Shown piece after piece: positions 15,642 through 43,541 of a stretch of 64,000 bases of DNA. Numbering within the stretch: the stretch's first letter is position 1; each line of letters begins with the position of its first letter. A program made the position numbers and the translations under genes. Below the pieces are notes generated by a model. The model was not told where the DNA came from and did no database searches. It saw nothing but the letters and a program-made list of their open reading frames with translations. The DNA is from Pseudomonadales bacterium (GTDB lineage Bacteria > Patescibacteriota > Microgenomatia > UBA1400 > PJMF01). Location of the stretch: positions 29,966 to 93,965 of the forward strand of contig JACKFY010000003.1 of NCBI GenBank assembly GCA_020632235.1, in the 5' to 3' direction.

Positions 15642-16280
15642 ATGGCTCAGCACATCGTTCCTTTTTACCCAAACACGCCAGATAACACCCATTGCTACCA
15701 AGCGGCACTGAAAATGGTGCTCAAGTTTTTTTGGCCAGAGGAAGCATACTCTTTGGATGAGCTGGACGAAGTAACTGCCAAGGTTGATGGGCTGTGGACG
15801 TGGCCGATTGCCGGACTACTGTGGCTACAAGAAAAACACGCCGAGGTGAGCATGATAGATGCATTTGATTTTCATGCATTTGTGAAAGACGGAGGGCAGT
15901 ACTTGCTTGATTTTTATGGAGATGAGGTGGGTAGCGCGCAAATTGCCCACAGCGATATAGAGCAAGAGATTAGTTTTGCCCAGCAGGCTTTAAAAACGCT
16001 TTCGATAGAAAAAAGGAGTGCTCGTATGGCAGATGTGAAGGCACTACTTGAGGATGGATTTCTGGTTATCTGTAACGTGAATGCTAATGCACCCAACAAC
16101 AAAGAGGGGTACACAGGGCACTTTGTCGTTATCACGGGGTTTGACGAGAATGGGTTGTATATGCATGATCCTGGATTACCACCACGGCGCAATCGACGGG
16201 TGAGCTATGAGCACTTTACCTCTGCTTGGGCGTATCCAGATGAAACAGCGAAGTGGTTGATTGCGGTGAGGAAAGTGTGA
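15642..16280 (+). CDS. Peptidase C39-like (papain-fold) domain protein
   Basis: Carries the Cys motif NTHCYQAALKMVL and the His motif YTGHFVVITGFDENGLYMHDPG, typical of C39/C39_2 peptidase domains. No ABC transporter partner nearby. Confidence 0.55.
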   Translation: MAQHIVPFYPNTPDNTHCYQAALKMVLKFFWPEEAYSLDELDEVTAKVDGLWTWPIAGLLWLQEKHAEVSMIDAFDFHAFVKDGGQYLLDFYGDEVGSAQIAHSDIEQEISFAQQALKTLSIEKRSARMADVKALLEDGFLVICNVNANAPNNKEGYTGHFVVITGFDENGLYMHDPGLPPRRNRRVSYEHFTSAWAYPDETAKWLIAVRKV

Positions 16281-16352
16281 GTCCGCTGGGACTATCCGCC
16301 GGTGGGTGGAAGGACACAGAGCTTAAAAAAGTCGGTCGGCTGACGGATCTAA
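16277..16352 (-). repeat. tRNA-Lys-derived partial copy (3' acceptor end, degraded T-region, variable and anticodon 3' half) fused to a hairpin-containing repeat
   Basis: gtgagtccgctgggact (16277-16293) and aggacacagagcttaaaa (16311-16328) are identical to tRNA-Lys segments. The T-loop is replaced by a 17-nt insert. It is followed by a 24-nt repeat unit (aagtcggtcggctgacggatctaa) that also encodes the GIY-YIG C-terminus DPSADRLF*. Confidence 0.6.
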
Positions 16353-16616
16353 CCGAACTAATAGTAACGACCAGAGAAATGACCTACCCCTACTTGACTT
16401 AAGCTGTTTTTCCCTATAAAGAGCAGTGCTTTTTTCTCCGCATAGCTCAATGTAGAGATACTCCCAAAAAGGCGGAAACCTATGAGTAAAGCTTGGTTTC
16501 TTTACCGGTAGTTGTTGATTGTGCTGGTCAAGTCGGTTATTAAGGTGTTGTGTTATGCCAATGTATATTTTGTGTGCAGTGGGATTGTAGATGCAGTACG
16601 TGTAGTATGGCGGTAT
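16323..16616 (-). CDS. GIY-YIG nuclease domain protein (YhbQ/UPF0213-like)
   Basis: PYYTYCIYNPTAHKIYIGITQHLNNRLDQHN is the GIY-YIG core, and ALYREKQLKS follows it. The track ORF (to 16649) uses a GTG inside the tRNA-Lys T-arm, which is probably spurious. The true start is unclear. Confidence 0.6.
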   Translation of the reverse strand: MPPYYTYCIYNPTAHKIYIGITQHLNNRLDQHNQQLPVKKPSFTHRFPPFWEYLYIELCGEKSTALYREKQLKSSRGRSFLWSLLLVRLDPSADRLF

Positions 16617-16693
16617 TGGTGAGTCCGCTGGGACTCGAACCCAGGACACAGAGCTTAAAAGGCTCCTGCTCTAACCAACTGAGCTACGGACCC
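16617..16693 (-). tRNA. tRNA-Lys (anticodon TTT), CCA encoded
   Basis: The reverse complement GGGTCCGTAGCTCAGTTGGTTAGAGCAGGAGCCTTTTAAGCTCTGTGTCCTGGGTTCGAGTCCCAGCGGACTCACCA folds as a canonical cloverleaf with a GTTCGAGTC T-loop and anticodon loop CTTTTAA. Confidence 0.85.
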
Positions 16694-16755
16694 TCACACA
16701 AGCACGTAGTATACCCCACTGATGAATGCTCCGCTACAGATAAAGAAAATCTAGA

Positions 16756-16794
16756 ACACAGAGCTTAAAAAGTCCGTCGGCTGACGGATCTAAT
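16756..16794 (-). repeat. Second copy of the tRNA-Lys-derived hairpin repeat, upstream of tRNA-Lys
   Basis: acacagagcttaaaaagtccgtcggctgacggatctaa matches 16314-16352 with two or three differences. It shares acacagagcttaaaa with the tRNA-Lys anticodon and variable region and contains a CCGTC-ggct-GACGG hairpin. Confidence 0.6.
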
Positions 16795-16951
16795 CTTTAC
16801 CCCGATACTTCTCGGGGAACCCCGCCCCGTCTGAAACCCAACCTCCAGTTGGGATGATGCGAACCCTCAAATCTGCGTGTGCTGTGATATGTCAGAGTGT
16901 TGTACGTATTCTGATTCGTTTGGAAATCTCCCTGCATGCTATCATGCCACT

Positions 16952-26894: not shown

Positions 26895-27241
26895 CAGATA
26901 CAGCAACACAACAAGTAAATCCTAACAAGTTGTTTGTAGGCAACATCCCTTGGAGCATAACCCAAGACGGCTTGGTCGACCTTTTCTCGCAGTACGGTGC
27001 GATTGTCGACGCCAAGCTGATGACCGAAAGGCAAACAGGTAGGTCAAAAGGTTTTGGATTCGTTGAATTTGAAAGCGCAGAGGCAGCGCAAGCGGCAATT
27101 GACGCGTTAAGCGGCACTGAAGTAGAAGGTAGAGAGCTCGTTGTCAACGTTGCCCGACCAAGAGCACCCCGAGAAGACCGAGGTGGCTATCGCGGTGGCG
27201 GTGGCGGATACAACCGAGACCGCAACAGCCGAAGCTGGTAA
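26891..27241 (+). CDS. RRM-type RNA-binding protein with a Gly/Arg-rich tail
   Basis: KLFVGNIPW is the RNP2 motif, KGFGFVEF is RNP1, and the tail is RGGYRGGGGGYNRDRN. Confidence 0.85.
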   Translation: MADTATQQVNPNKLFVGNIPWSITQDGLVDLFSQYGAIVDAKLMTERQTGRSKGFGFVEFESAEAAQAAIDALSGTEVEGRELVVNVARPRAPREDRGGYRGGGGGYNRDRNSRSW

Positions 27242-27269
27242 GCTAGGCTTGGATACATGAAATATCTAA

Positions 27270-27297
27270 AAAGACCCCTTTTGAGGGGTCTTTTTTT
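27270..27297 (+). terminator. Rho-independent terminator
   Basis: aagaCCCCTTttgAGGGGtc followed by T7. Confidence 0.7.
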
Positions 27298-27339
27298 GCA
27301 CGTGCTTGCTTGGAGTAGTACATGGTAAGATGCAGATAG

Positions 27340-27867
27340 ATGTTTGCAATCATCCTACTCATTATCTCGGGAGTTATCTTAGCAGCGGTTGTGTTGTATT
27401 TTGGTATGCAGGTGCTGTATGCCAGCACCATGCTGCACGGCCCTGTGTTTGTGCCTAGCAAACCCAAAGATGTTGCCCAGATGATCAAGCTCGCCCAGCT
27501 AAAAAAATCTGACAAAATTTTGGATCTTGGCTCTGGAGACGGCACGGTAGTATTGGCGCTAGCAAAGCTGGCGTACCAGGCTCATGGAGTTGATATTAAC
27601 CCGCTATTGGTGCGAAAAGCACGAAAGAAAGCGGTCGCACTTGAGCTGTCAGAGCGCGTGACGTTTGAGCGCGCTAATTTTTGGAGTCTTGATTTGTCTG
27701 AGTATGATGTGATTTTTTTCTATGGCACTACGTATGTTATGAAAAAACTAGAGAAGAAACTGTTTGCAGAGTTGAAGCCAGGGTCGCGAGTTGTTTCCAA
27801 TTACTTTGAGTTTCCTACCTGGAAGCCAGCTAGAGAACAAGGGAAGATTAGGGTGTATGAGAAATAA
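27340..27867 (+). CDS. Class I SAM-dependent methyltransferase (small)
   Basis: ILDLGSGDGTVVLALA is motif I, and there is an N-terminal transmembrane helix. Confidence 0.65.
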   Translation: MFAIILLIISGVILAAVVLYFGMQVLYASTMLHGPVFVPSKPKDVAQMIKLAQLKKSDKILDLGSGDGTVVLALAKLAYQAHGVDINPLLVRKARKKAVALELSERVTFERANFWSLDLSEYDVIFFYGTTYVMKKLEKKLFAELKPGSRVVSNYFEFPTWKPAREQGKIRVYEK

Positions 27868-28067
27868 TGCAAAGTATGAGCGTTAGGGACGAATCTTTTT
27901 TAGCAAGGTTACTTAGAAAACAGTCTGTTGTTGAACGCGTCGCTCAAGAAACTGGAAAGAAATGCGGGGGGGCAAAGAATGAGATTGGTCGTCAGATAAA
28001 ACAGTGTTTAACAGGAAAAAATCCTATTTCTGGTGCATCAGTTACAAAATCTGGCGTTGAAGATTAA
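27867..28067 (+). CDS. Small basic hypothetical protein, overlapping the methyltransferase stop as TAATG
   Basis: 66 aa ORF in a layout consistent with translational coupling. No known family. Confidence 0.25.
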   Translation: MQSMSVRDESFLARLLRKQSVVERVAQETGKKCGGAKNEIGRQIKQCLTGKNPISGASVTKSGVED

Positions 28068-28663
28068 TAACAGACAACAACCAGGTCAAAACTACTTTCT
28101 GGCCGTATGTGTGAAAAGTAATAGTCCTCGGCCGGATCCCACCTGCGGTGCCAATCATCCATGTATGTCGCTCCTTCTCGATTCACAAGGTTTGTCCTTC
28201 TTACTGTATCATCGGAAGATTGCACTAAAACTGAAAGGTCGACAAGTTTAGTAAGCTCTGGTCTAGCAGAGTACGCGCCGTCGAGCACAATCACTCTGTG
28301 GGGAGCAATAGTGATAGGTGTATCAGATAAGCCTTTGTTTGTTTGAAAATCAAATGGACGATAGGATACAGCTTCTCCATTTCTGAGGGGTATAAGCACC
28401 TCTTTTGCAAGTCGTTTCCAGTCAATACCAAGCTGGACTCTTTCTTCAGGAGATCTATTATCCCATAGCTCATTTTCGCCACCAGCCCAAAAATTATCAG
28501 CCGTAACAACAACCCCGCCTACTTCTTCAGCAACTTTTTTCGCCAGGGTTGATTTGCCAACACCACTTCTGCCATCAAGTGCAATGATGACTGGGTGTTG
28601 TGCGTTGTTTTTTAATGCAGTTATTACTGCGACAAGATACTCCATACTGTTTGAAGGTTGCAT
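28064..28663 (-). CDS. P-loop nucleoside kinase (uridine kinase / nicotinamide-riboside kinase family)
   Basis: IALDGRSGVGKSTLAKKV is the Walker A motif, then ADNFW, then VIVLDGAY. The layout resembles NRK/Udk. Confidence 0.65.
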   Translation of the reverse strand: MQPSNSMEYLVAVITALKNNAQHPVIIALDGRSGVGKSTLAKKVAEEVGGVVVTADNFWAGGENELWDNRSPEERVQLGIDWKRLAKEVLIPLRNGEAVSYRPFDFQTNKGLSDTPITIAPHRVIVLDGAYSARPELTKLVDLSVLVQSSDDTVRRTNLVNREGATYMDDWHRRWDPAEDYYFSHIRPESSFDLVVVCY

Positions 28664-28678
28664 GTTTTTAGTTCTTAA

Positions 28679-29116
28679 CTATTTCCACCCATACTCAGAG
28701 TACATCTCACCTTTTGCGACAGCATCAAGTGCGTAGCGCACGGACGCAATCATGTTTTCTGGTAGATCAGCCATATCAAACCACTTCAACTCGCTACATT
28801 TATCTGGCTCTTTGTTCGTTATCTTTCCACTCCAGCTCGTAGCTACAAAATATACATCTACGCGCTCTGAGCCATCACTATCAGATTTTCGATGCATGAT
28901 GTGGGCTGGTTGTAGGTTGTTTGGTTGTAACATAATGCCTATTTCTTCTTTTACCTCTCTGATGATAGCCTGGGAGAATGGTTCGCCCTCGTCGACATGT
29001 CCAGCAACAAGACTCCAGTCGCCGTCGTGATAGCCAGTGTTATGGCGTTTGGATAACAGAATTTTGTTTTCTTTTTGCAAGACAAGGAATGTGGCGACGA
29101 TATTGGTGTGGCGCAT
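28679..29116 (-). CDS. NUDIX hydrolase
   Basis: GHVDEGEPFSQAIIREVKEEIGI is the Nudix box. Confidence 0.85.
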   Translation of the reverse strand: MRHTNIVATFLVLQKENKILLSKRHNTGYHDGDWSLVAGHVDEGEPFSQAIIREVKEEIGIMLQPNNLQPAHIMHRKSDSDGSERVDVYFVATSWSGKITNKEPDKCSELKWFDMADLPENMIASVRYALDAVAKGEMYSEYGWK

Positions 29117-29135
29117 GGCAGAAATAGTGAGCTGG

Positions 29136-29486
29136 TTATTTTTTACTATATCTTCCGATGAAAAAACTAATTATCAAGCCAATAATTGTAAGAATAGTAT
29201 CGATTTTTGATCCGGCGTCAGATTGTTCATATAAATTGAGCATGTATTTTAAGAAGTTTGAGGAAATCCATAAAATTTCATTTTTATAAAATGAAATGAA
29301 AAATGATATTAAAATAAATTTAAAAAGAAGGTCACCTCTTTTTTGTTGATGTTCGATCGCCTGCAAAGTAATTTTTCTATCTTTGTTCTGCAACTCAAGC
29401 ATTTTTAGTAAGACGTTTCTCATGTCTTCCAGATCATCATCAATTTTTTTTATCTTTTTTGAGGAAGAAAGAGGAGATTTGTTCAT
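29136..29486 (-). CDS. Small membrane protein in an AT-rich DNA segment, immediately downstream of tRNA-Glu
   Basis: 116 aa with two hydrophobic helices, in DNA of about 30% GC. Confidence 0.4.
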   Translation of the reverse strand: MNKSPLSSSKKIKKIDDDLEDMRNVLLKMLELQNKDRKITLQAIEHQQKRGDLLFKFILISFFISFYKNEILWISSNFLKYMLNLYEQSDAGSKIDTILTIIGLIISFFIGRYSKK

Positions 29487-29494
29487 ATTTTTTG

Positions 29495-29566
29495 TGACCC
29501 CACGGGGAATCGAACCCCGCTTTTCAGGATGAAAACCTGATGTCCTAGCCGATAGACGATGGGGCC
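29495..29566 (-). tRNA. tRNA-Glu (anticodon TTC)
   Basis: The reverse complement GGCCCCATCGTCTATCGGCTAGGACATCAGGTTTTCATCCTGAAAAGCGGGGTTCGATTCCCCGTGGGGTCA gives a cloverleaf with anticodon loop TTTTCAT. CCA is not encoded. Confidence 0.85.
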
Positions 29567-29607
29567 ATCTATCTTTTTTACTATACTATCAATTGCACTG
29601 CACCACT

Positions 29608-29758
29608 CCTTTCAGGATGTCACCCTCAGGGTGATCACTCGCTAGAGCGAAAAACCTGATGTCCTTATCTCCCGCAGGGAGGCTAGCCGACAGACCCCGT
29701 TATTGCCTCAAATATTTAATCGAGAGCAAAACGGGACAGGCTTTGGGGCCATCTATCT
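29608..29758 (-). other. Partial tRNA-Glu duplicate (5' leader, acceptor 5' half, D-arm, anticodon arm; no T-arm) interrupted by three hairpin insertions
   Basis: The colinear blocks ggggccatctatct, ctagccgaCagac, aaaacctgatgtcct and tttcaggatg match the tRNA-Glu gene and its 5' flank. They are separated by inserts that each form hairpins: CCCGTT...AACGGG, CTCCC-gca-GGGAG and TCACCCT-c-AGGGTGA. Confidence 0.6.
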
Positions 29759-29815
29759 GTAGTATTGTACCATTTTCATTTCTAGCAGATAGAGACTGGT
29801 AAATAGTGCTTTTTT

Positions 29816-30190
29816 TCAAAATAACCATGTAATATTTTCAAAGTGCTCGATGGTGTCACCCTGCAGCGTCACGCAATCAAAGCGATAGTTTTTGTGAATG
29901 GCGTGTGCTTTGACGTATGCAGCAGCACAGATTTGGAGGGAGCGGAGTTTTTTCTGGGTAATGCTGCTACTGGGGTGAGCAGGAGCATGCTTTGATCGTG
30001 TCTTGACCTCGATGAATACCAGTTCGTCTCGGTCGTTGTCCCAGGCGATAATATCTACTTCGTGGTTTTTGTAGCGCACGTTTTGCTCTACTACACGATA
30101 TCCTTGTGTTGTTAAAAAGCGAGCAGCTGCACCTTCCCCTCTAGAGCCAGTGGAGGTATTATGCGCTCTTTGTTGTTTGGGCGACAGCAC
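29816..30190 (-). CDS. yraN: YraN/UPF0102 family endonuclease (start uncertain)
   Basis: [49 protein letters not shown] matches the YraN core. The track ORF extends to 30394, overlapping rplS. A likely start is GTG near 30190, or ATG at 30262. Confidence 0.6.
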
Positions 30191-30512
30191 TCTTTTCTTT
30201 AATGCGGGTGGCTGCTTTTCCGATGCGGTCGCGGAGGTAATAGAGTTTTGCGCGCCTGACATGACCTTTGCGTTTGACCTCGATAGACTTGATACTTGGC
30301 AGACGCACGGGTAGAATCTTTTCAACCCCAATGCCGTTTGCACCGATCTTGCGCACGGTAAATGATTGACCAGCACCCGCGTTTTTAATAGCAATTACCA
30401 ACCCCTCAAATAGCTGGGTGCGTGTTTTATCACCGTCAGTAATGCTTTGGTGAATGCGCACGGTGTCGCCTATGTGTACGTCTGTGGTGTTGTGAGTAAA
30501 GGTGTTTGCCAT
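30159..30512 (-). CDS. rplS: 50S ribosomal protein L19
   Basis: [80 protein letters not shown]. Confidence 0.9.
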
Positions 30513-30571
30513 ATCTCCTTCAGGTTATTCTTAAAGCAAGAGATGTATTGTACTGTATGTTGGAGCTGTTC

Positions 30572-32263
30572 TCAAGTGCGTGGTTTTTGATTCTTCATGC
30601 CTGCTACTTTGAGAAACTCTACAAATAAAGGGTGGGGCGCGAGTGGGCGAGATTTATACTCCGGGTGTGCTTGGGTTGCGATGAAAAACGGGTGCACTTC
30701 TGGTGGCAGCTCTATCATCTCAACAAAAAAATCATCGGGTGAGGTGCCCGAGATGACAAACCCCGCGTCTTCTAGTGGCTGGCGGTACTCATTATTAAAT
30801 TCATAACGATGGCGATGGCGCTCTGAAATGAGGTTTTGTTTGGCGTCTTTAAATGCCTTGTGTTTGCTATAGATGCTGTGTGCGAGTGTGCCTTTTTCCA
30901 AAATACAGTCGTACGCACCCAAACGCATGCTGGCCCCGTCCCCCTTGATGCGCTGATAGGATGCCTCAAATGGAATGTCGTGAATGATGGGGTGGGGTGT
31001 ATCGGGGTTGACTTCGGTGGTGTGGGCGTCGTCTAGGCCGCACACATTACGGGCAAACTCCACACTGGCCAGCTGCATGCCGTAACACAGGCCCAAGTAC
31101 GGCACTTTGTTTTCTCGGGCATACTTGATGGCATTAATTTTCCCCTCGACTCCCCGCTCTCCCCAGCCAATAGGCACAATAATGCCGCTGGCTGACCTGA
31201 GCGTTTTCCAGGCATTTTTGTCGTTTTGTTCTAGCTGTTCGGCGTTAATAAGCTCTATCTGGACGTCGAGTGACTGGTGCCAGCCAGCAAACGAGAGCGA
31301 CTCCAAGAGCGAGACGTACGAGTCTTTTAGCTCAAACTCACCCGTGGCGATGTACTTGGCGATGATAGCGATGGTGACGGTTTCTTTTTTGGGCGTTGAG
31401 ATAGAGTCAACAAAGTCACGCCAAGGCTTCAGGGTACTTCGCTGTGCCTCTAGTCCCACTTTTTTTAGCACTTTCTCGTCAAACTGTTGGTCTGCTAGCA
31501 CCAAGGGTACGTGGTAGATCGTTTCAAGATCTGGGTTCGAAATAACATCAGCAGCGTCGATATTGCAGTAGTAGGCTACTTTTTCTTTGCGCTTGTCATC
31601 AATGTAGTGCTCTCCTCTCCCCACAATAAAGTCGGGCTGAATGCCCATTGAGTTGAGGGTGCGCACCGAGAGCTGAGTGGGTTTTGACTTTAACTCATTG
31701 ATGTGGGAAGGGTTCGGAAAGTAGGTGACGTGGACGTGGATAACGTCACTGGGCTGCTGTAACTTCATGATGCGGTAGGCCTCGTAGTAGATGACGTTTT
31801 GGTATTCGCCCGCCGTGCCACCCAGCTCCACCAGGCAGATATCAAACCCGTTGCCCGCTTTTTTTATTCTGCGAATGGCCTCTTGTGGGATGTACATCCA
31901 GGCGTCAACGGTAGCACCGTTGTAGGCCAGATTGCGGGTGTTGTCTATCACGGTGGAGTAGATCTGCCCTAAAGTAGTAAAGTTGGTCTCGCCCACTTCT
32001 TGGCCCAAGAAGCGCTCGTACGAGCCCAGGTCAAGATCTGCTTCCAGGCCGTCTTCACACAAAAAGACGTCGCCGTGCTCGATAGGGTTGATGTTGCCCG
32101 AGTCTAAATTGAGATAGTTTTCACACTTGATGTTGGTGACCGAGTAGCCGCGGCTTTTGAGCAGCATTCCCAGCGAGGCCGCCGTGATGCCTTTGCCTAG
32201 GCCCGACAGCACACCGCCAGATACAAAGATATACTTAGTGGGAGTTGTTCCATGATTGCTCAC
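30572..32263 (-). CDS. pyrG: CTP synthase
   Basis: KYIFVSGGVLSGLGKGITAASLG at the N-terminus and a C-terminal glutamine amidotransferase domain (GLCYGMQL). Confidence 0.95.
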   Translation of the reverse strand: MSNHGTTPTKYIFVSGGVLSGLGKGITAASLGMLLKSRGYSVTNIKCENYLNLDSGNINPIEHGDVFLCEDGLEADLDLGSYERFLGQEVGETNFTTLGQIYSTVIDNTRNLAYNGATVDAWMYIPQEAIRRIKKAGNGFDICLVELGGTAGEYQNVIYYEAYRIMKLQQPSDVIHVHVTYFPNPSHINELKSKPTQLSVRTLNSMGIQPDFIVGRGEHYIDDKRKEKVAYYCNIDAADVISNPDLETIYHVPLVLADQQFDEKVLKKVGLEAQRSTLKPWRDFVDSISTPKKETVTIAIIAKYIATGEFELKDSYVSLLESLSFAGWHQSLDVQIELINAEQLEQNDKNAWKTLRSASGIIVPIGWGERGVEGKINAIKYARENKVPYLGLCYGMQLASVEFARNVCGLDDAHTTEVNPDTPHPIIHDIPFEASYQRIKGDGASMRLGAYDCILEKGTLAHSIYSKHKAFKDAKQNLISERHRHRYEFNNEYRQPLEDAGFVISGTSPDDFFVEMIELPPEVHPFFIATQAHPEYKSRPLAPHPLFVEFLKVAGMKNQKPRT

Positions 32264-32343
32264 GGAGATGTATTGTAGCTAGAATAAGCCTTTAGGGCAA
32301 CTTGTATTTTCATTCAATAAAAAGTAAAATTGTTTAAAATATA

Positions 32344-33132
32344 ATGAGTAATTTAGAAAAATTTTTTTGCTGGCGCAAGAATGCTTTGGCAGCTAGCAAA
32401 GCGCATCCGGATAAACCTCATGAGTTATCTCCTTTAATTTCTCAAGATGAGGTGTCAAAAATGTTAGATTTTATCACTGATTTGATAAATGAACACGCAC
32501 GGAATGTGTTCAAAGATTTTGATATAGTGATGCAACTCTATTTAGATGGGCGTAGAGATGATCGGCTGTATAGGTTTTTTAAATCTTGCAGAAAGCCATT
32601 TTTGATTTATAGAAGTATTGTTTTCATGTTGACAGAAGAACGGATGATTGATCCAGATTTAAATAACTTTATAAAATTATTGGGAAAATTTAATGATAGT
32701 TTTTTCTTGGAAAATAACTCATATGCTACAAAGCTTAGAGCTGCTTTTAACAAAATTAAAGACAATTCTTTTCCAGAGCATGTGCCCACCAGTGGTTTTG
32801 CTTCCAGATTTGGGGAGTTGAAGTCTGAAATACTACATTTTTTTGATGAAATGGAAAAAAAACAGTCAGTAGATATTAATTCGTACCATGATTTGCGCAA
32901 ACTTCTAAAGCATATGTTGAACTACTTTCAAATTTTTGCTTACTTAAATAGAGATGAGATTTCATTGCACAAATTTTATGAGATTAGTCAGTTGGTTGAC
33001 GTAATGGGGGATACGCATGATACTGCAATTCAACAGTCATTAAAAGGAGAAGTTGAGTATATTAAATACAAAGTTGCCATTGAGGCTGGCTTGTTCTCTA
33101 GGGTTAGAGAAGCTCTAACTTTATCCCAATAA
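32344..33132 (+). CDS. Hypothetical protein in an AT-rich island between pyrG and dnaE
   Basis: 262 aa in DNA of about 32% GC. No recognisable family. The 3' end overlaps the dnaE stop convergently. Confidence 0.5.
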   Translation: MSNLEKFFCWRKNALAASKAHPDKPHELSPLISQDEVSKMLDFITDLINEHARNVFKDFDIVMQLYLDGRRDDRLYRFFKSCRKPFLIYRSIVFMLTEERMIDPDLNNFIKLLGKFNDSFFLENNSYATKLRAAFNKIKDNSFPEHVPTSGFASRFGELKSEILHFFDEMEKKQSVDINSYHDLRKLLKHMLNYFQIFAYLNRDEISLHKFYEISQLVDVMGDTHDTAIQQSLKGEVEYIKYKVAIEAGLFSRVREALTLSQ

Positions 33133-42639: not shown

Positions 42640-42870
42640 GAGTACCTTTCGTTTGATCACATCTACTAGTGGCGTCATAATAGCACACGAGGTTCTAGAC
42701 TGCTAGCATGAAGAGCCTCTGGTGTCTTGAGTGCGACCTTGTCCGTTGTGTTCTGTGGCATAGCGCAGTATAATCCGCTTACTAGCCAAAGCTTGGAAAA
42801 ACGGTTTGTGGATGAAGCACGGAGCTGTCTACTGCTGAAAAACAAGCAATACATAGAGTCCTGATACGCT

Positions 42871-42924
42871 GGGATAATCTAGTGGTTATCCCGACACTAG
42901 GTGTCGGGGCACGGAAGAGATCGC
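42871..42924 (+). repeat. tRNA-Asp-derived partial copy with hairpin insertion; upstream copy of a 44-bp direct repeat
   Basis: GGGATAA-tctagtgg-TTATCCC is D-arm-like. CCCGACAC-tag-GTGTCGGG replaces the anticodon 5' half. ACGGAAGAGATCGC matches the tRNA-Asp anticodon 3' half and variable loop. The 44-mer at 42881-42924 is identical to 43314-43357. Confidence 0.6.
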
Positions 42925-42950: not shown

Positions 42951-43026
42951 GGCCTCGTGGTGTAGTGGTTAACATGCTTCCCTGTCACGGAAGAGATCGC
43001 CGGTTCGAGTCCGGTCGAGGTCGCCA
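42951..43026 (+). tRNA. tRNA-Asp (anticodon GTC), CCA encoded
   Basis: GGCCTCGTGGTGTAGTGGTTAACATGCTTCCCTGTCACGGAAGAGATCGCCGGTTCGAGTCCGGTCGAGGTCGCCA gives a canonical cloverleaf. Confidence 0.85.
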
Positions 43027-43042
43027 AAAAGAAGAAATACGT

Positions 43043-43297
43043 ATGTCTTGGGTCTACATCTTGTGTAGCAAAAAAGATAACTCATATTATGTTGGTAGTA
43101 CCAATAATCTAGAACGGAGAATTGGGCAGCATAACAATGGTTTTTCTCGATACACCAGAGCAAAAATCCCTTGGAAGTTAGTGTATACAGAAACTCATGA
43201 TTCTCTAAAAGACGCTCGAATACGAGAGCAACAACTCAAAAACTGGAAAAGCAGAGTTGCTCTTGAGAGATTGATAGGTAAAAACAAACAGCTCTGA
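43043..43297 (+). CDS. GIY-YIG nuclease domain protein (YhbQ/UPF0213-like), second copy
   Basis: MSWVYILCSKKDNSYYVGSTNNLERRIGQHN...IREQQLKNW. The track ORF (from 42965) runs through tRNA-Asp. The ATG at 43043 lies 17 nt after the tRNA. Confidence 0.7.
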   Translation: MSWVYILCSKKDNSYYVGSTNNLERRIGQHNNGFSRYTRAKIPWKLVYTETHDSLKDARIREQQLKNWKSRVALERLIGKNKQL

Positions 43298-43299
43298 TA

Positions 43300-43382
43300 G
43301 GTCAGGACGGTGTAGTGGTTATCCCGACACTAGGTGTCGGGGCACGGAAGAGATCGCCGGTTCGAGTTCGGTCGAGGTAGCA
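43300..43382 (+). other. Full-length tRNA-Asp-like pseudo-tRNA with a broken acceptor stem and the anticodon arm replaced by an extended hairpin; downstream copy of the 44-bp repeat
   Basis: GGTCAGGACGGTGTAGTGGTTA-TCCCGACACTAGGTGTCGGGGC-ACGGAAGAGATCGCCGGTTCGAGTTCGGTCGAGGTAGCA. The D-loop, variable loop, T-arm and 3' acceptor are close to tRNA-Asp, but the 5' acceptor cannot pair and the 3' end reads GCA rather than CCA. Confidence 0.6.
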
Positions 43383-43541
43383 AAAAGATATTCTAGGATA
43401 TCTTATAACTTGTAAAATCAAGTGTTTCTAAAACTATAAGATGTCTTATAGTTTTACTACTAACTATAGGTCTTTTTTACGCACCAACTGTGTATTGTCA
43501 CATGTAGGTAGTTTGGTATAGTACGACTACGTTTCGTATCT

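Follow-up and report, generated by a model that had tools for sequence, protein, structure and literature searches.

Why should an intact tRNA-Glu gene lie directly downstream of a second tRNA-Glu that lacks its T-arm and is split by hairpins? The question is raised by a stretch of 64,000 nucleotides (64 kb) of contig JACKFY010000003.1 (assembly GCA_020632235.1), referred to here as the window, which comes from a metagenome-assembled genome (MAG) of the Patescibacteria that is Woesebacteria-like to judge from its H6774_ locus tags, source names and nearest relatives. The split copy, named pseudo-tRNA-Glu, was compared with its intact neighbor, with the other tRNA loci of the window and with loci from other bacteria. 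The reading favored here, with a probability of roughly 55%, is that pseudo-tRNA-Glu is a solo relic arm, left behind without its nuclease gene, of a GIY-YIG nuclease cassette that targets tRNA genes. It is preferred because pseudo-tRNA-Glu sits at the ancestral tRNA-Glu site, because full cassettes are found at the tRNA-Asp and tRNA-Lys genes of the same window, and because the same type of fragment, with two of the same insert sites, occurs beside nuclease genes elsewhere.

tRNA genes in the window were called with ARAGORN and Rfam, which gave five genes, each tRNA species being present as a single copy. Pseudo-tRNA-Glu was tested by gapped local alignment of the leader and tRNA against the 300 nt upstream, with dinucleotide shuffles as the null. 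An earlier note on this DNA had described a second tRNA-Glu copy on the minus strand, consisting of the leader and the 5' part of the tRNA without a T-arm. This description was borne out by the pairwise alignment: the score of the colinear blocks was 63 against 25.8 ± 3.8 for shuffles (z = 9.8), and 43 of 45 block positions were identical to the intact gene. The parts of the locus are as follows.

29608-29758, minus strand: pseudo-tRNA-Glu, an 8-nt leader and tRNA positions 1-47 in four colinear blocks with three inserts and no T-arm
29751-29758, minus strand: leader AGATAGAT of pseudo-tRNA-Glu (8/8 identical)
29744-29750, minus strand: block of tRNA positions 1-7
29696-29743, minus strand: insert 1, 48 nt in place of tRNA nt 8-9, with a CCCGTT...AACGGG hairpin
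29683-29695, minus strand: block of tRNA positions 10-22, with one mismatch (A14>G)
29664-29682, minus strand: insert 2, 19 nt, with the hairpin CTCCC-TGC-GGGAG
29651-29663, minus strand: block of tRNA positions 23-35
29620-29650, minus strand: insert 3, 31 nt, with two hairpins, TCGC-TCTA-GCGA and TCACCC-TGA-GGGTGA
29608-29619, minus strand: block of tRNA positions 36-47, with one mismatch
29567-29607, minus strand: spacer of 41 nt, the last ~23 nt of which repeat the -10-like box and leader found 5' of the pseudo-copy (17/23 identical)
29494-29566, minus strand: intact tRNA-Glu(UUC), found by ARAGORN (as TTC) and Rfam

Homology between the two copies thus extends for ~23 nt 5' of the leader and covers a -10-like box. 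Three self-complementary inserts had been reported earlier and all three are present; the assignment of one hairpin to each did not hold, as insert 3 contains two, and the inserts carry four small hairpins in total. After removal of the inserts the four helices of a tRNA could not be recovered, since the T-arm is missing and any 3' acceptor remnant is doubtful at most. Moreover, neither ARAGORN nor Rfam called a tRNA 5' of the intact gene. With an intact tRNA-Glu adjoining, these results dispose of the alternative that the region is a functional intron-containing tRNA. The predicted RNA fold of pseudo-tRNA-Glu gave z = -2.3 relative to shuffles, and two other pseudo-copies gave -0.8 and -0.8.

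The position of pseudo-tRNA-Glu was examined by synteny in 15 relatives in which the gene for ribosomal protein L19 and tRNA-Glu lie on the same strand, most of which carry a YraN-like gene between the two. In 14 of these relatives, each with a single tRNA-Glu, the distance from the end of the L19 match to the start of tRNA-Glu is 347-469 nt; the exception, L004, has 103 nt (loci and records are cited by their numbers in the collection). The corresponding distances in the window are 409 nt for pseudo-tRNA-Glu and 593 nt for the intact gene. As the first value falls inside the range of the relatives and the second outside it, it is the pseudo-copy that keeps the ancestral site. The disabled copy, which is recently related to the working gene, therefore occupies the ancestral tRNA-Glu site and promoter, and the working gene, shifted by 184 nt, is the displaced or newer one. 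No tRNA-Glu pseudo-copy was found within 60 nt upstream of tRNA-Glu in any of the 15 relatives, which are distant from the window organism (68-75% amino acid identity), and no GIY-YIG gene was found in 1.37 Mb of loci from 17 Patescibacteria relatives and, for the remainder, other bacteria. The 192-aa YraN (UPF0102) open reading frame (ORF) listed for the window overlaps the L19 gene (29816-30394 and 30159-30512, respectively); its true start is probably an internal ATG, giving ~148 aa.

Further analysis revealed that the Glu locus is not isolated, as four of the five tRNA loci in the window bear hairpin-marked tRNA fragments and two of these four have a nuclease gene. At tRNA-Asp and tRNA-Lys, which lie ~13 kb to either side of tRNA-Glu, the order is pseudo-tRNA, intact tRNA, GIY-YIG ORF of the UPF0213 type, and second pseudo-tRNA. 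The features of these loci and of a candidate at tRNA-Thr are listed below.

42848-42924, plus strand: Asp pseudo-tRNA A, the 5' part of tRNA-Asp, in which TCCCGACAC-TAG-GTGTCGGGG replaces the 3' side of the D-stem and the 5' side of the anticodon stem
42951-43026, plus strand: intact tRNA-Asp(GUC), found by ARAGORN and Rfam, after a 26-nt spacer that follows pseudo-tRNA A
43043-43297, plus strand: GIY-YIG gene of 84 aa, UPF0213/COG2827 type (PF01541, 6.5e-20)
43281-43386, plus strand: Asp pseudo-tRNA B, hairpin-substituted as A but extending further, through a T-arm and 3' acceptor that are almost intact; the stop of the GIY-YIG gene lies within it
16751-16866, minus strand: Lys pseudo-tRNA A, the 5' part of tRNA-Lys to the variable loop, with CCCAAC..GTTGGG, CCCCGA..TCGGGG and TCCGTC..GACGGA hairpins
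16617-16693, minus strand: intact tRNA-Lys(UUU), found by ARAGORN and Rfam
16323-16616, minus strand: Lys GIY-YIG ORF, directly after tRNA-Lys (PF01541, 5.1e-14; homologue profile, 2.9e-11)
16277-16360, minus strand: Lys pseudo-tRNA B (z = 5.5), with D-loop, a TCCGTC..GACCGA hairpin in the anticodon-stem slot, and anticodon loop to variable loop
44909-44976, minus strand: candidate relic 3' of tRNA-Thr, the anticodon-arm sides GCGGTATC and AACCGTAGGTC ~49 nt apart

T-arm-less copies upstream of the Lys and Asp genes had been noted before, and both were recovered by alignment (z = 3.9 and 5.6, respectively). That description was incomplete, as each locus also has a downstream copy that keeps the T-arm; in Lys pseudo-tRNA B the T-loop is replaced while the 3' T-stem and acceptor are retained. 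Direct repeats at the two loci measure 45-77 nt and are spaced by 433 nt (Asp) and 441 nt (Lys). The Asp repeat comprises 77 nt of pseudo-tRNAs A and B that are 83% identical; the last ~50 nt, in which the hairpin lies, show no differences. Because the final 17 nt of the GIY-YIG ORF are also present in the A repeat, pseudo-tRNA A was copied from a nuclease-linked unit. The Lys ORF has no ATG, GTG or TTG between the tRNA end and the domain, its sole in-frame start being a GTG within the tRNA, and it may be a pseudogene or the user of an unusual start. The ~49 nt of the Thr candidate contain a CCCCG..CGGGG hairpin and no nuclease ORF; its alignment is weak (z = 1.9), and the motif TTCAGACGGG is common to it and a Lys pseudo-copy. 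This fragment is probably a nuclease-less relic as well. The proposal that a general process acts at the tRNA genes of this genome is thus upheld by four loci out of five.

Are such fragments found beside GIY-YIG genes in other genomes? The nearest homologues, together with 80 metagenomic loci retrieved by means of a small alignment, gave a set of 84 loci from metagenomes and genomes; the count of neighboring tRNAs covers 83 of them, the 84th (L173) having been added later. A tRNA lies within 200 nt of the GIY-YIG ORF in 30 of the 83 loci, in all 30 on the same strand, and the partial tRNA copies beside these ORFs carry hairpins that either split helices or replace them exactly at the helix boundaries. 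Two layouts can be told apart. In layout D (12 loci, with tRNAs for Glu, Asn, Arg and Gln) the 3' end of the ORF abuts or overlaps the 5' end of the intact tRNA, and directly upstream of the ORF the 5' part of the tRNA is repeated colinearly, interrupted by hairpins, as in L093, where this fragment reads GGCCCTATCGT[two hairpins]CTAATGGTTAGGA-ATG. The fragment was seen by eye in 12 of 12 loci and gave z > 2.5 in 8 of 12, the near-identical L097 and L098 being counted separately. In layout U (18 loci, mostly at tRNA-Asp and including tRNA-Met of a Flavobacterium MAG) the order is intact tRNA, terminator, GIY-YIG ORF and pseudo-tRNA. Here the 17-nt anticodon arm of the pseudo-tRNA is exactly swapped for a TCCCG...CGGGA hairpin, and the variable loop, T-arm, acceptor strand and CCA are retained; the T-arm is swapped likewise in some loci. 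An upstream pseudo-copy is present as well in 8 of ~13 assessable layout U loci. Acceptor stems are not maintained in the pseudo-copies.

The comparison most directly relevant to the window is that with L097. At this locus a tRNA-Glu(CUC) copy extends to the anticodon arm and is interrupted at the junction of D-loop and D-stem and between anticodon nt 2 and 3, which are the sites of inserts 2 and 3 in the window; the inserted sequences themselves are unrelated. Pseudo-tRNA-Glu therefore agrees with the tRNA fragments beside UPF0213-type genes in its layout and, exactly, in two of its insert sites. As judged from sequence, this pattern marks the flanks of minimal GIY-YIG (UPF0213) genes that adjoin tRNA genes in Patescibacteria and Bacteroidota. 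Nuclease paralogues that differ from one another are arrayed in tandem in several layout U loci (L108, L125, L128 and L131). In L125, L131 and L108, units of pseudo-tRNA, terminator and GIY-YIG paralogue are repeated around a single intact tRNA, and positions 2565-2850 of L128 consist of 87-nt units with hairpins in the T-arm slot. Since L099 and L108 contain pseudo-tRNA units without a nuclease gene, loss of the ORF is plausible at Glu too.

Nucleases of this clade also occur in a second context, seen in 32-41 of the 84 loci (L103-L143 and others), in which inverted repeats of ~50 nt with the form GGTCGAGTAG-hairpin-CGTATCGAGACC flank the gene. These repeats at times include a TCCCG..CGGGA hairpin, and the layout recalls that of REP sequences around their transposase.

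The 84-aa protein of the Asp locus belongs to UPF0213/COG2827 in that it has a single GIY-YIG domain and is similar to two members of known structure, BH0048 of B. halodurans (PDB 1zg2, E = 5.9e-8) and EF2693 of E. faecalis (1ywl, 5.4e-5). The invariant columns of an eight-sequence family alignment (Y5, Y16, G18, T20, R26, H30, E62 and others) are present in it. No C-terminal DNA-binding domain was found, the only Pfam match being GIY-YIG at residues 1-71. A profile hidden Markov model (HMM) built from more than 70 homologues was then run against all six-frame fragments of the window; it matched only the Asp and Lys ORFs and found no GIY-YIG remnant at the Glu locus, including the 41-nt spacer. 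One stretch of that spacer, GCAATTGATAG, is similar to the ...AIERLI codons with which L097 and L090 end on their 3' side. It was considered as a relic and rejected, as the likeness of this 8-mer is by estimate insignificant after multiple comparisons.

What the hairpins have in common is structure. Across 193 kb of GIY-YIG loci, TCCCG..CGGGA is the commonest hairpin base that is not AT, with 45 cases against 12 of its inside-out form. It has 43 distinct occurrences, 21 of them in the anticodon-arm slot, and of these 21 distinct anticodon-slot hairpins, 20 have a stem of at least 7 bp. In 31 distinct hairpins from all slots, stem positions 6-8 are A-T, T-A or C-G with complementarity kept. The hairpins thus form a structural class with a common TCCCG...CGGGA-like stem base, above which both the loop and the distal stem are variable and show covariation; those of the window have the form TC..GA or CCCG..CGGG. 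Because distal stems covary over a fixed base, the hairpin is selected as a structure; because it is a palindrome, roles in DNA and in RNA are indistinguishable. A bias toward TCCCG as the first strand had been taken as a sign of a role in RNA or single-stranded DNA and was withdrawn, since the palindrome reads alike on both strands. Rfam matched nothing other than tRNA, leaving the pseudo-copies unmatched or, in L131, with partial tRNA matches.

Within the window, tight GC-rich hairpins number 8 in the pseudo-regions against 0.73 expected, the regions having been picked post hoc; the overall density of hairpins with long loops is not enriched there (P = 0.09). The earlier note had proposed that duplicated tRNA 5' regions were then colonized by short hairpins resembling miniature inverted-repeat transposable elements (MITEs). 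A search of the 64 kb for the inserts as independent short repeats gave no second copies, apart from the A/B duplicates within a single locus, and this result rules out a MITE- or REP-like repeat family in the window. Colonization is opposed further by the hairpins of other genomes, which recur at identical sites in the tRNA or take the place of entire helices, exactly at the helix boundaries.

From these observations a mechanism can be outlined. A putative nuclease would break a tRNA gene, and repair would copy from a donor the nuclease gene and a working tRNA lying between homology arms derived from the tRNA. The recipient would gain the cassette with a replacement tRNA, and the old tRNA would persist as fragments. 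Hairpins in the fragments would destroy both the tRNA fold and unbroken homology, so that the fragments would no longer be targets and the cassette would be protected from deletion. Repeated rounds would produce tandem arrays, which self-targeting of the rescue tRNA would account for, and if the ORF were lost, the Glu arrangement of a pseudo-copy with an intact tRNA at its side would remain. The mechanism that we infer is homing with a rescue tRNA. A broader proposal is offered as a tentative possibility that is more doubtful than the relic reading itself: UPF0213-type GIY-YIG genes would be a widespread, undescribed selfish class, present at least in Patescibacteria and Bacteroidota, that invades tRNA genes with a replacement tRNA ('cleave-and-rescue') and marks the displaced pieces by exchanging or splitting their helices with a cognate TCCCG...CGGGA hairpin recognized by the nuclease. 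The Glu copy would then be a fossil.

The DNA 3' of the intact tRNA-Glu differs from that of the complete cassettes. The feature next to the tRNA is the following.

29136-29486, minus strand: ORF of 116 aa (hypothetical protein H6774_03330, NCBI), starting 7 nt after tRNA-Glu

This ORF sits in the slot taken by the GIY-YIG gene at the Asp and Lys loci and is followed by a Nudix gene and a P-loop kinase gene. An AT-rich 116-aa ORF ahead of a Nudix and kinase pair had been claimed previously, and this agrees with the Pfam matches and with a GC content of 27% for 29136-29486 compared with 48% for the window. Its C-terminal part is hydrophobic and membrane-like, as judged by eye and not by a transmembrane predictor. 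Only the protein itself was matched in a word-indexed search of 5.8 billion proteins and in an exhaustive search of 1.84 billion cluster representatives; Pfam and PHROG gave no match, and the single NCBIfam match, PhaR, was far below threshold (20 bits against a cut-off of 109). Look-ups of the exact protein gave no match for it or for the GIY-YIG protein of the window. It is probably a real orphan gene, as so long an open frame in DNA of 27% GC is unlikely to arise by chance. Under the relic reading, the cassette slot would have received the AT-rich ORF through an insertion, either an unrelated one or one that replaced the earlier content. The view that tRNA flanks in this genome hold non-core DNA is in keeping with the GIY-YIG ORFs at Asp and Lys and the orphan ORF at Glu.

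Several points weigh against the relic reading. The profile search left no GIY-YIG trace at Glu, so that the link is one of architecture and not of a nuclease footprint, and the Glu hairpins fit the TCCCG..CGGGA consensus only loosely. An 84-aa protein without a DNA-binding domain has no obvious source of target specificity, and a nuclease with sequence specificity would have the rescue tRNA among its targets. No pair of filled and empty sites was found among the relatives, the nearest of which are only ~68-75% identical at the protein level. In addition, the duplicated promoter and leader are equally compatible with a plain tandem duplication of promoter, leader and tRNA-Glu, after which the upstream copy would decay neutrally and acquire its hairpins as incidental palindromic insertions. 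Such a duplication would also explain the lack of a nuclease ORF or relic and an RNA fold barely better than shuffles. It is nevertheless considered unlikely. Of the five tRNA loci in the 64 kb, four share the pattern, and an unrelated tRNA-Glu/GIY-YIG locus has inserts at exactly two of the sites. The hairpins are of a class that recurs, with stems that covary, and they are enriched in the pseudo-regions. Moreover, had drift been given the time to add ~98 nt of insertions, it would be strange for the blocks to be still 96% identical. The exact replacement of helices and the covarying distal stems would suit functional RNAs, whether as a structured leader or 3' end that governs how tRNA and nuclease transcripts are processed or stabilized, or as a protein-binding decoy in which a tRNA-like scaffold presents the TCCCG..CGGGA hairpin. 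The shared orientation of copies, tRNA and ORF in 30 of 30 loci and the promoter-like box kept by the pseudo-copy point the same way. This explanation is held to be improbable, given that acceptor stems are not kept, folding energies are unremarkable, the region 60 nt upstream of tRNA-Glu lacks a pseudo-copy in the 15 relatives, no Rfam family matches, and a palindrome acting at the DNA level would account for the covariation just as well.

Two explanations that involve mobile DNA were given still less credence. Hairpin-directed single-strand transposition, in which the GIY-YIG protein would recognize TCCCG..CGGGA as element ends in the manner of IS200/IS605 TnpA or REP-associated transposases and tRNA fragments would be carried along, or targeted because tRNA genes form hairpins, draws on the hairpins that bracket the cassette at Asp and Lys and on the RAYT-like inverted repeats around other homologous GIY-YIG genes. 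It is strongly disfavored by the minimal loci L132, L134 and L144, where a hairpin is present on one side only, and by the lack of dispersal of the hairpins through the window; moreover, no GIY-YIG transposase is known to us. The least credible explanation is an integrase-type island at tRNA-Glu. Its cargo would be the AT-rich ORF, possibly together with the Nudix and kinase genes, and the pseudo-copy would be what is left of an attachment site (att). In its favor are a sharp fall in GC to 27-30% directly 3' of tRNA-Glu and a set of genes downstream of it that varies among relatives. An att copy, however, would be the 3' part of the tRNA at the far end, and the duplicate is the 5' part, upstream and 41 nt away; no other 3' fragment of tRNA-Glu occurs anywhere in the window, and no recombinase was found among seven of the ORFs listed for 27000-32500, those scanned against Pfam. 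The relic reading of pseudo-tRNA-Glu is accordingly retained.

Some observations concern the records and the Asp locus. Several records of Patescibacteria MAGs (L001-L003, P0001 and P0121) are titled 'Pseudomonadales bacterium', in conflict with their gene content and nearest relatives, and these titles are likely a taxonomic labeling error. The Logan contigs L081 and L082 (SRR12358676 and SRR28385528), which represent independent assemblies of the window organism, are identical to the window up to 42909 and both end there, within the Asp hairpin repeat, which breaks short-read assemblies. In relatives (L084-L089) the synteny of LemA, tRNA-Asp, tRNA-Gly and tRNA-Thr is kept, and no obvious pseudo-copies were seen at the Asp locus of L086 and L084, the two that were read through. 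At 1490-1650 of L084, the last 14 nt of tRNA-Gly (CCGTATCCCGCTCA) are repeated ~150 nt downstream in an att-like manner, a hint that a small piece of DNA was inserted at the 3' end of this tRNA.

The significance of the Glu locus is that its hairpin-split half tRNA belongs to a repeatable architecture, found at no fewer than 30 independent loci in at least two phyla and centered on UPF0213, a family with solved structures and no assigned function. Ultra-small bacteria of this group have few tRNA genes, and since those in the window are single-copy, the rearrangement of one of them is consequential. If homing with a rescue tRNA proves true, it would be a new strategy by which a selfish nuclease occupies an essential gene and a source of tRNA pseudogenes and tandem arrays; it might also cause assemblies to break at tRNA loci, and it would provide a compact hairpin/nuclease pair. 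If the wider selfish-class proposal is correct, it would give UPF0213 its first proposed biological role. Should homing with rescue be wrong, a conserved hairpin that exactly replaces tRNA helices would still need explaining.

How, then, does this architecture compare with known systems? In enzymes of the Seg and I-TevI type the nuclease is accompanied by a second domain, a DNA-binding module, and hairpin-substituted partial tRNA copies are, to our knowledge, not described from Seg loci. A close parallel is SegB of phage T4, which is reported to cut a related phage within its tRNA gene region and to be co-inherited with its own flanks (PMC2330249). As at Asp and Lys, a GIY-YIG gene lies among or beside tRNA genes there; the host is a phage and not a bacterial chromosome, and the protein of the window consists of an 84-aa catalytic domain only. 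The Glu locus itself differs from a free-standing GIY-YIG homing locus in having no GIY-YIG ORF or relic. Stand-alone UPF0213/COG2827 proteins were classed by Dunin-Horkawicz et al. as the minimal, Slx1-like form of the fold (PMC1564403). BH0048 and EF2693 share size, single-domain layout and direct sequence similarity with the protein of the window, whereas the tRNA and hairpin context is new here: a full-text literature search revealed no tRNA linkage for the family and no published description of the architecture, although most subscription journals lay outside its reach and a prior description is possible.

Among mobile elements, tRNA-restoring integrative elements such as tyrosine-integrase islands and prophages also target tRNAs, keep a working tRNA and leave a partial duplicate at the boundary. 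The loci described here differ from them in that no integrase was found, the duplicate can be the 5' part (Glu), helices are replaced by hairpins and the cassettes are only ~430-440 bp. REP/RAYT (REPIN) systems and IS200/IS605 ends likewise pair one small nuclease gene with hairpins of conserved base, a likeness that is greatest for the GGTCGAGTAG-type repeat class; their nuclease fold is HUH rather than GIY-YIG, and the hairpins of the window are confined to tRNA fragments. Intron-containing, split and permuted tRNAs (archaeal bulge-helix-bulge and bacterial group I) have insertions within the tRNA, including the anticodon loop, whereas pseudo-tRNA-Glu lacks a T-arm and 3' acceptor once the inserts are removed, adjoins an intact gene and has no group I core. 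The pairing of a nuclease reduced to its catalytic domain with hairpin-substituted tRNA fragments, which is combined in none of these closest systems, is what sets the architecture apart.

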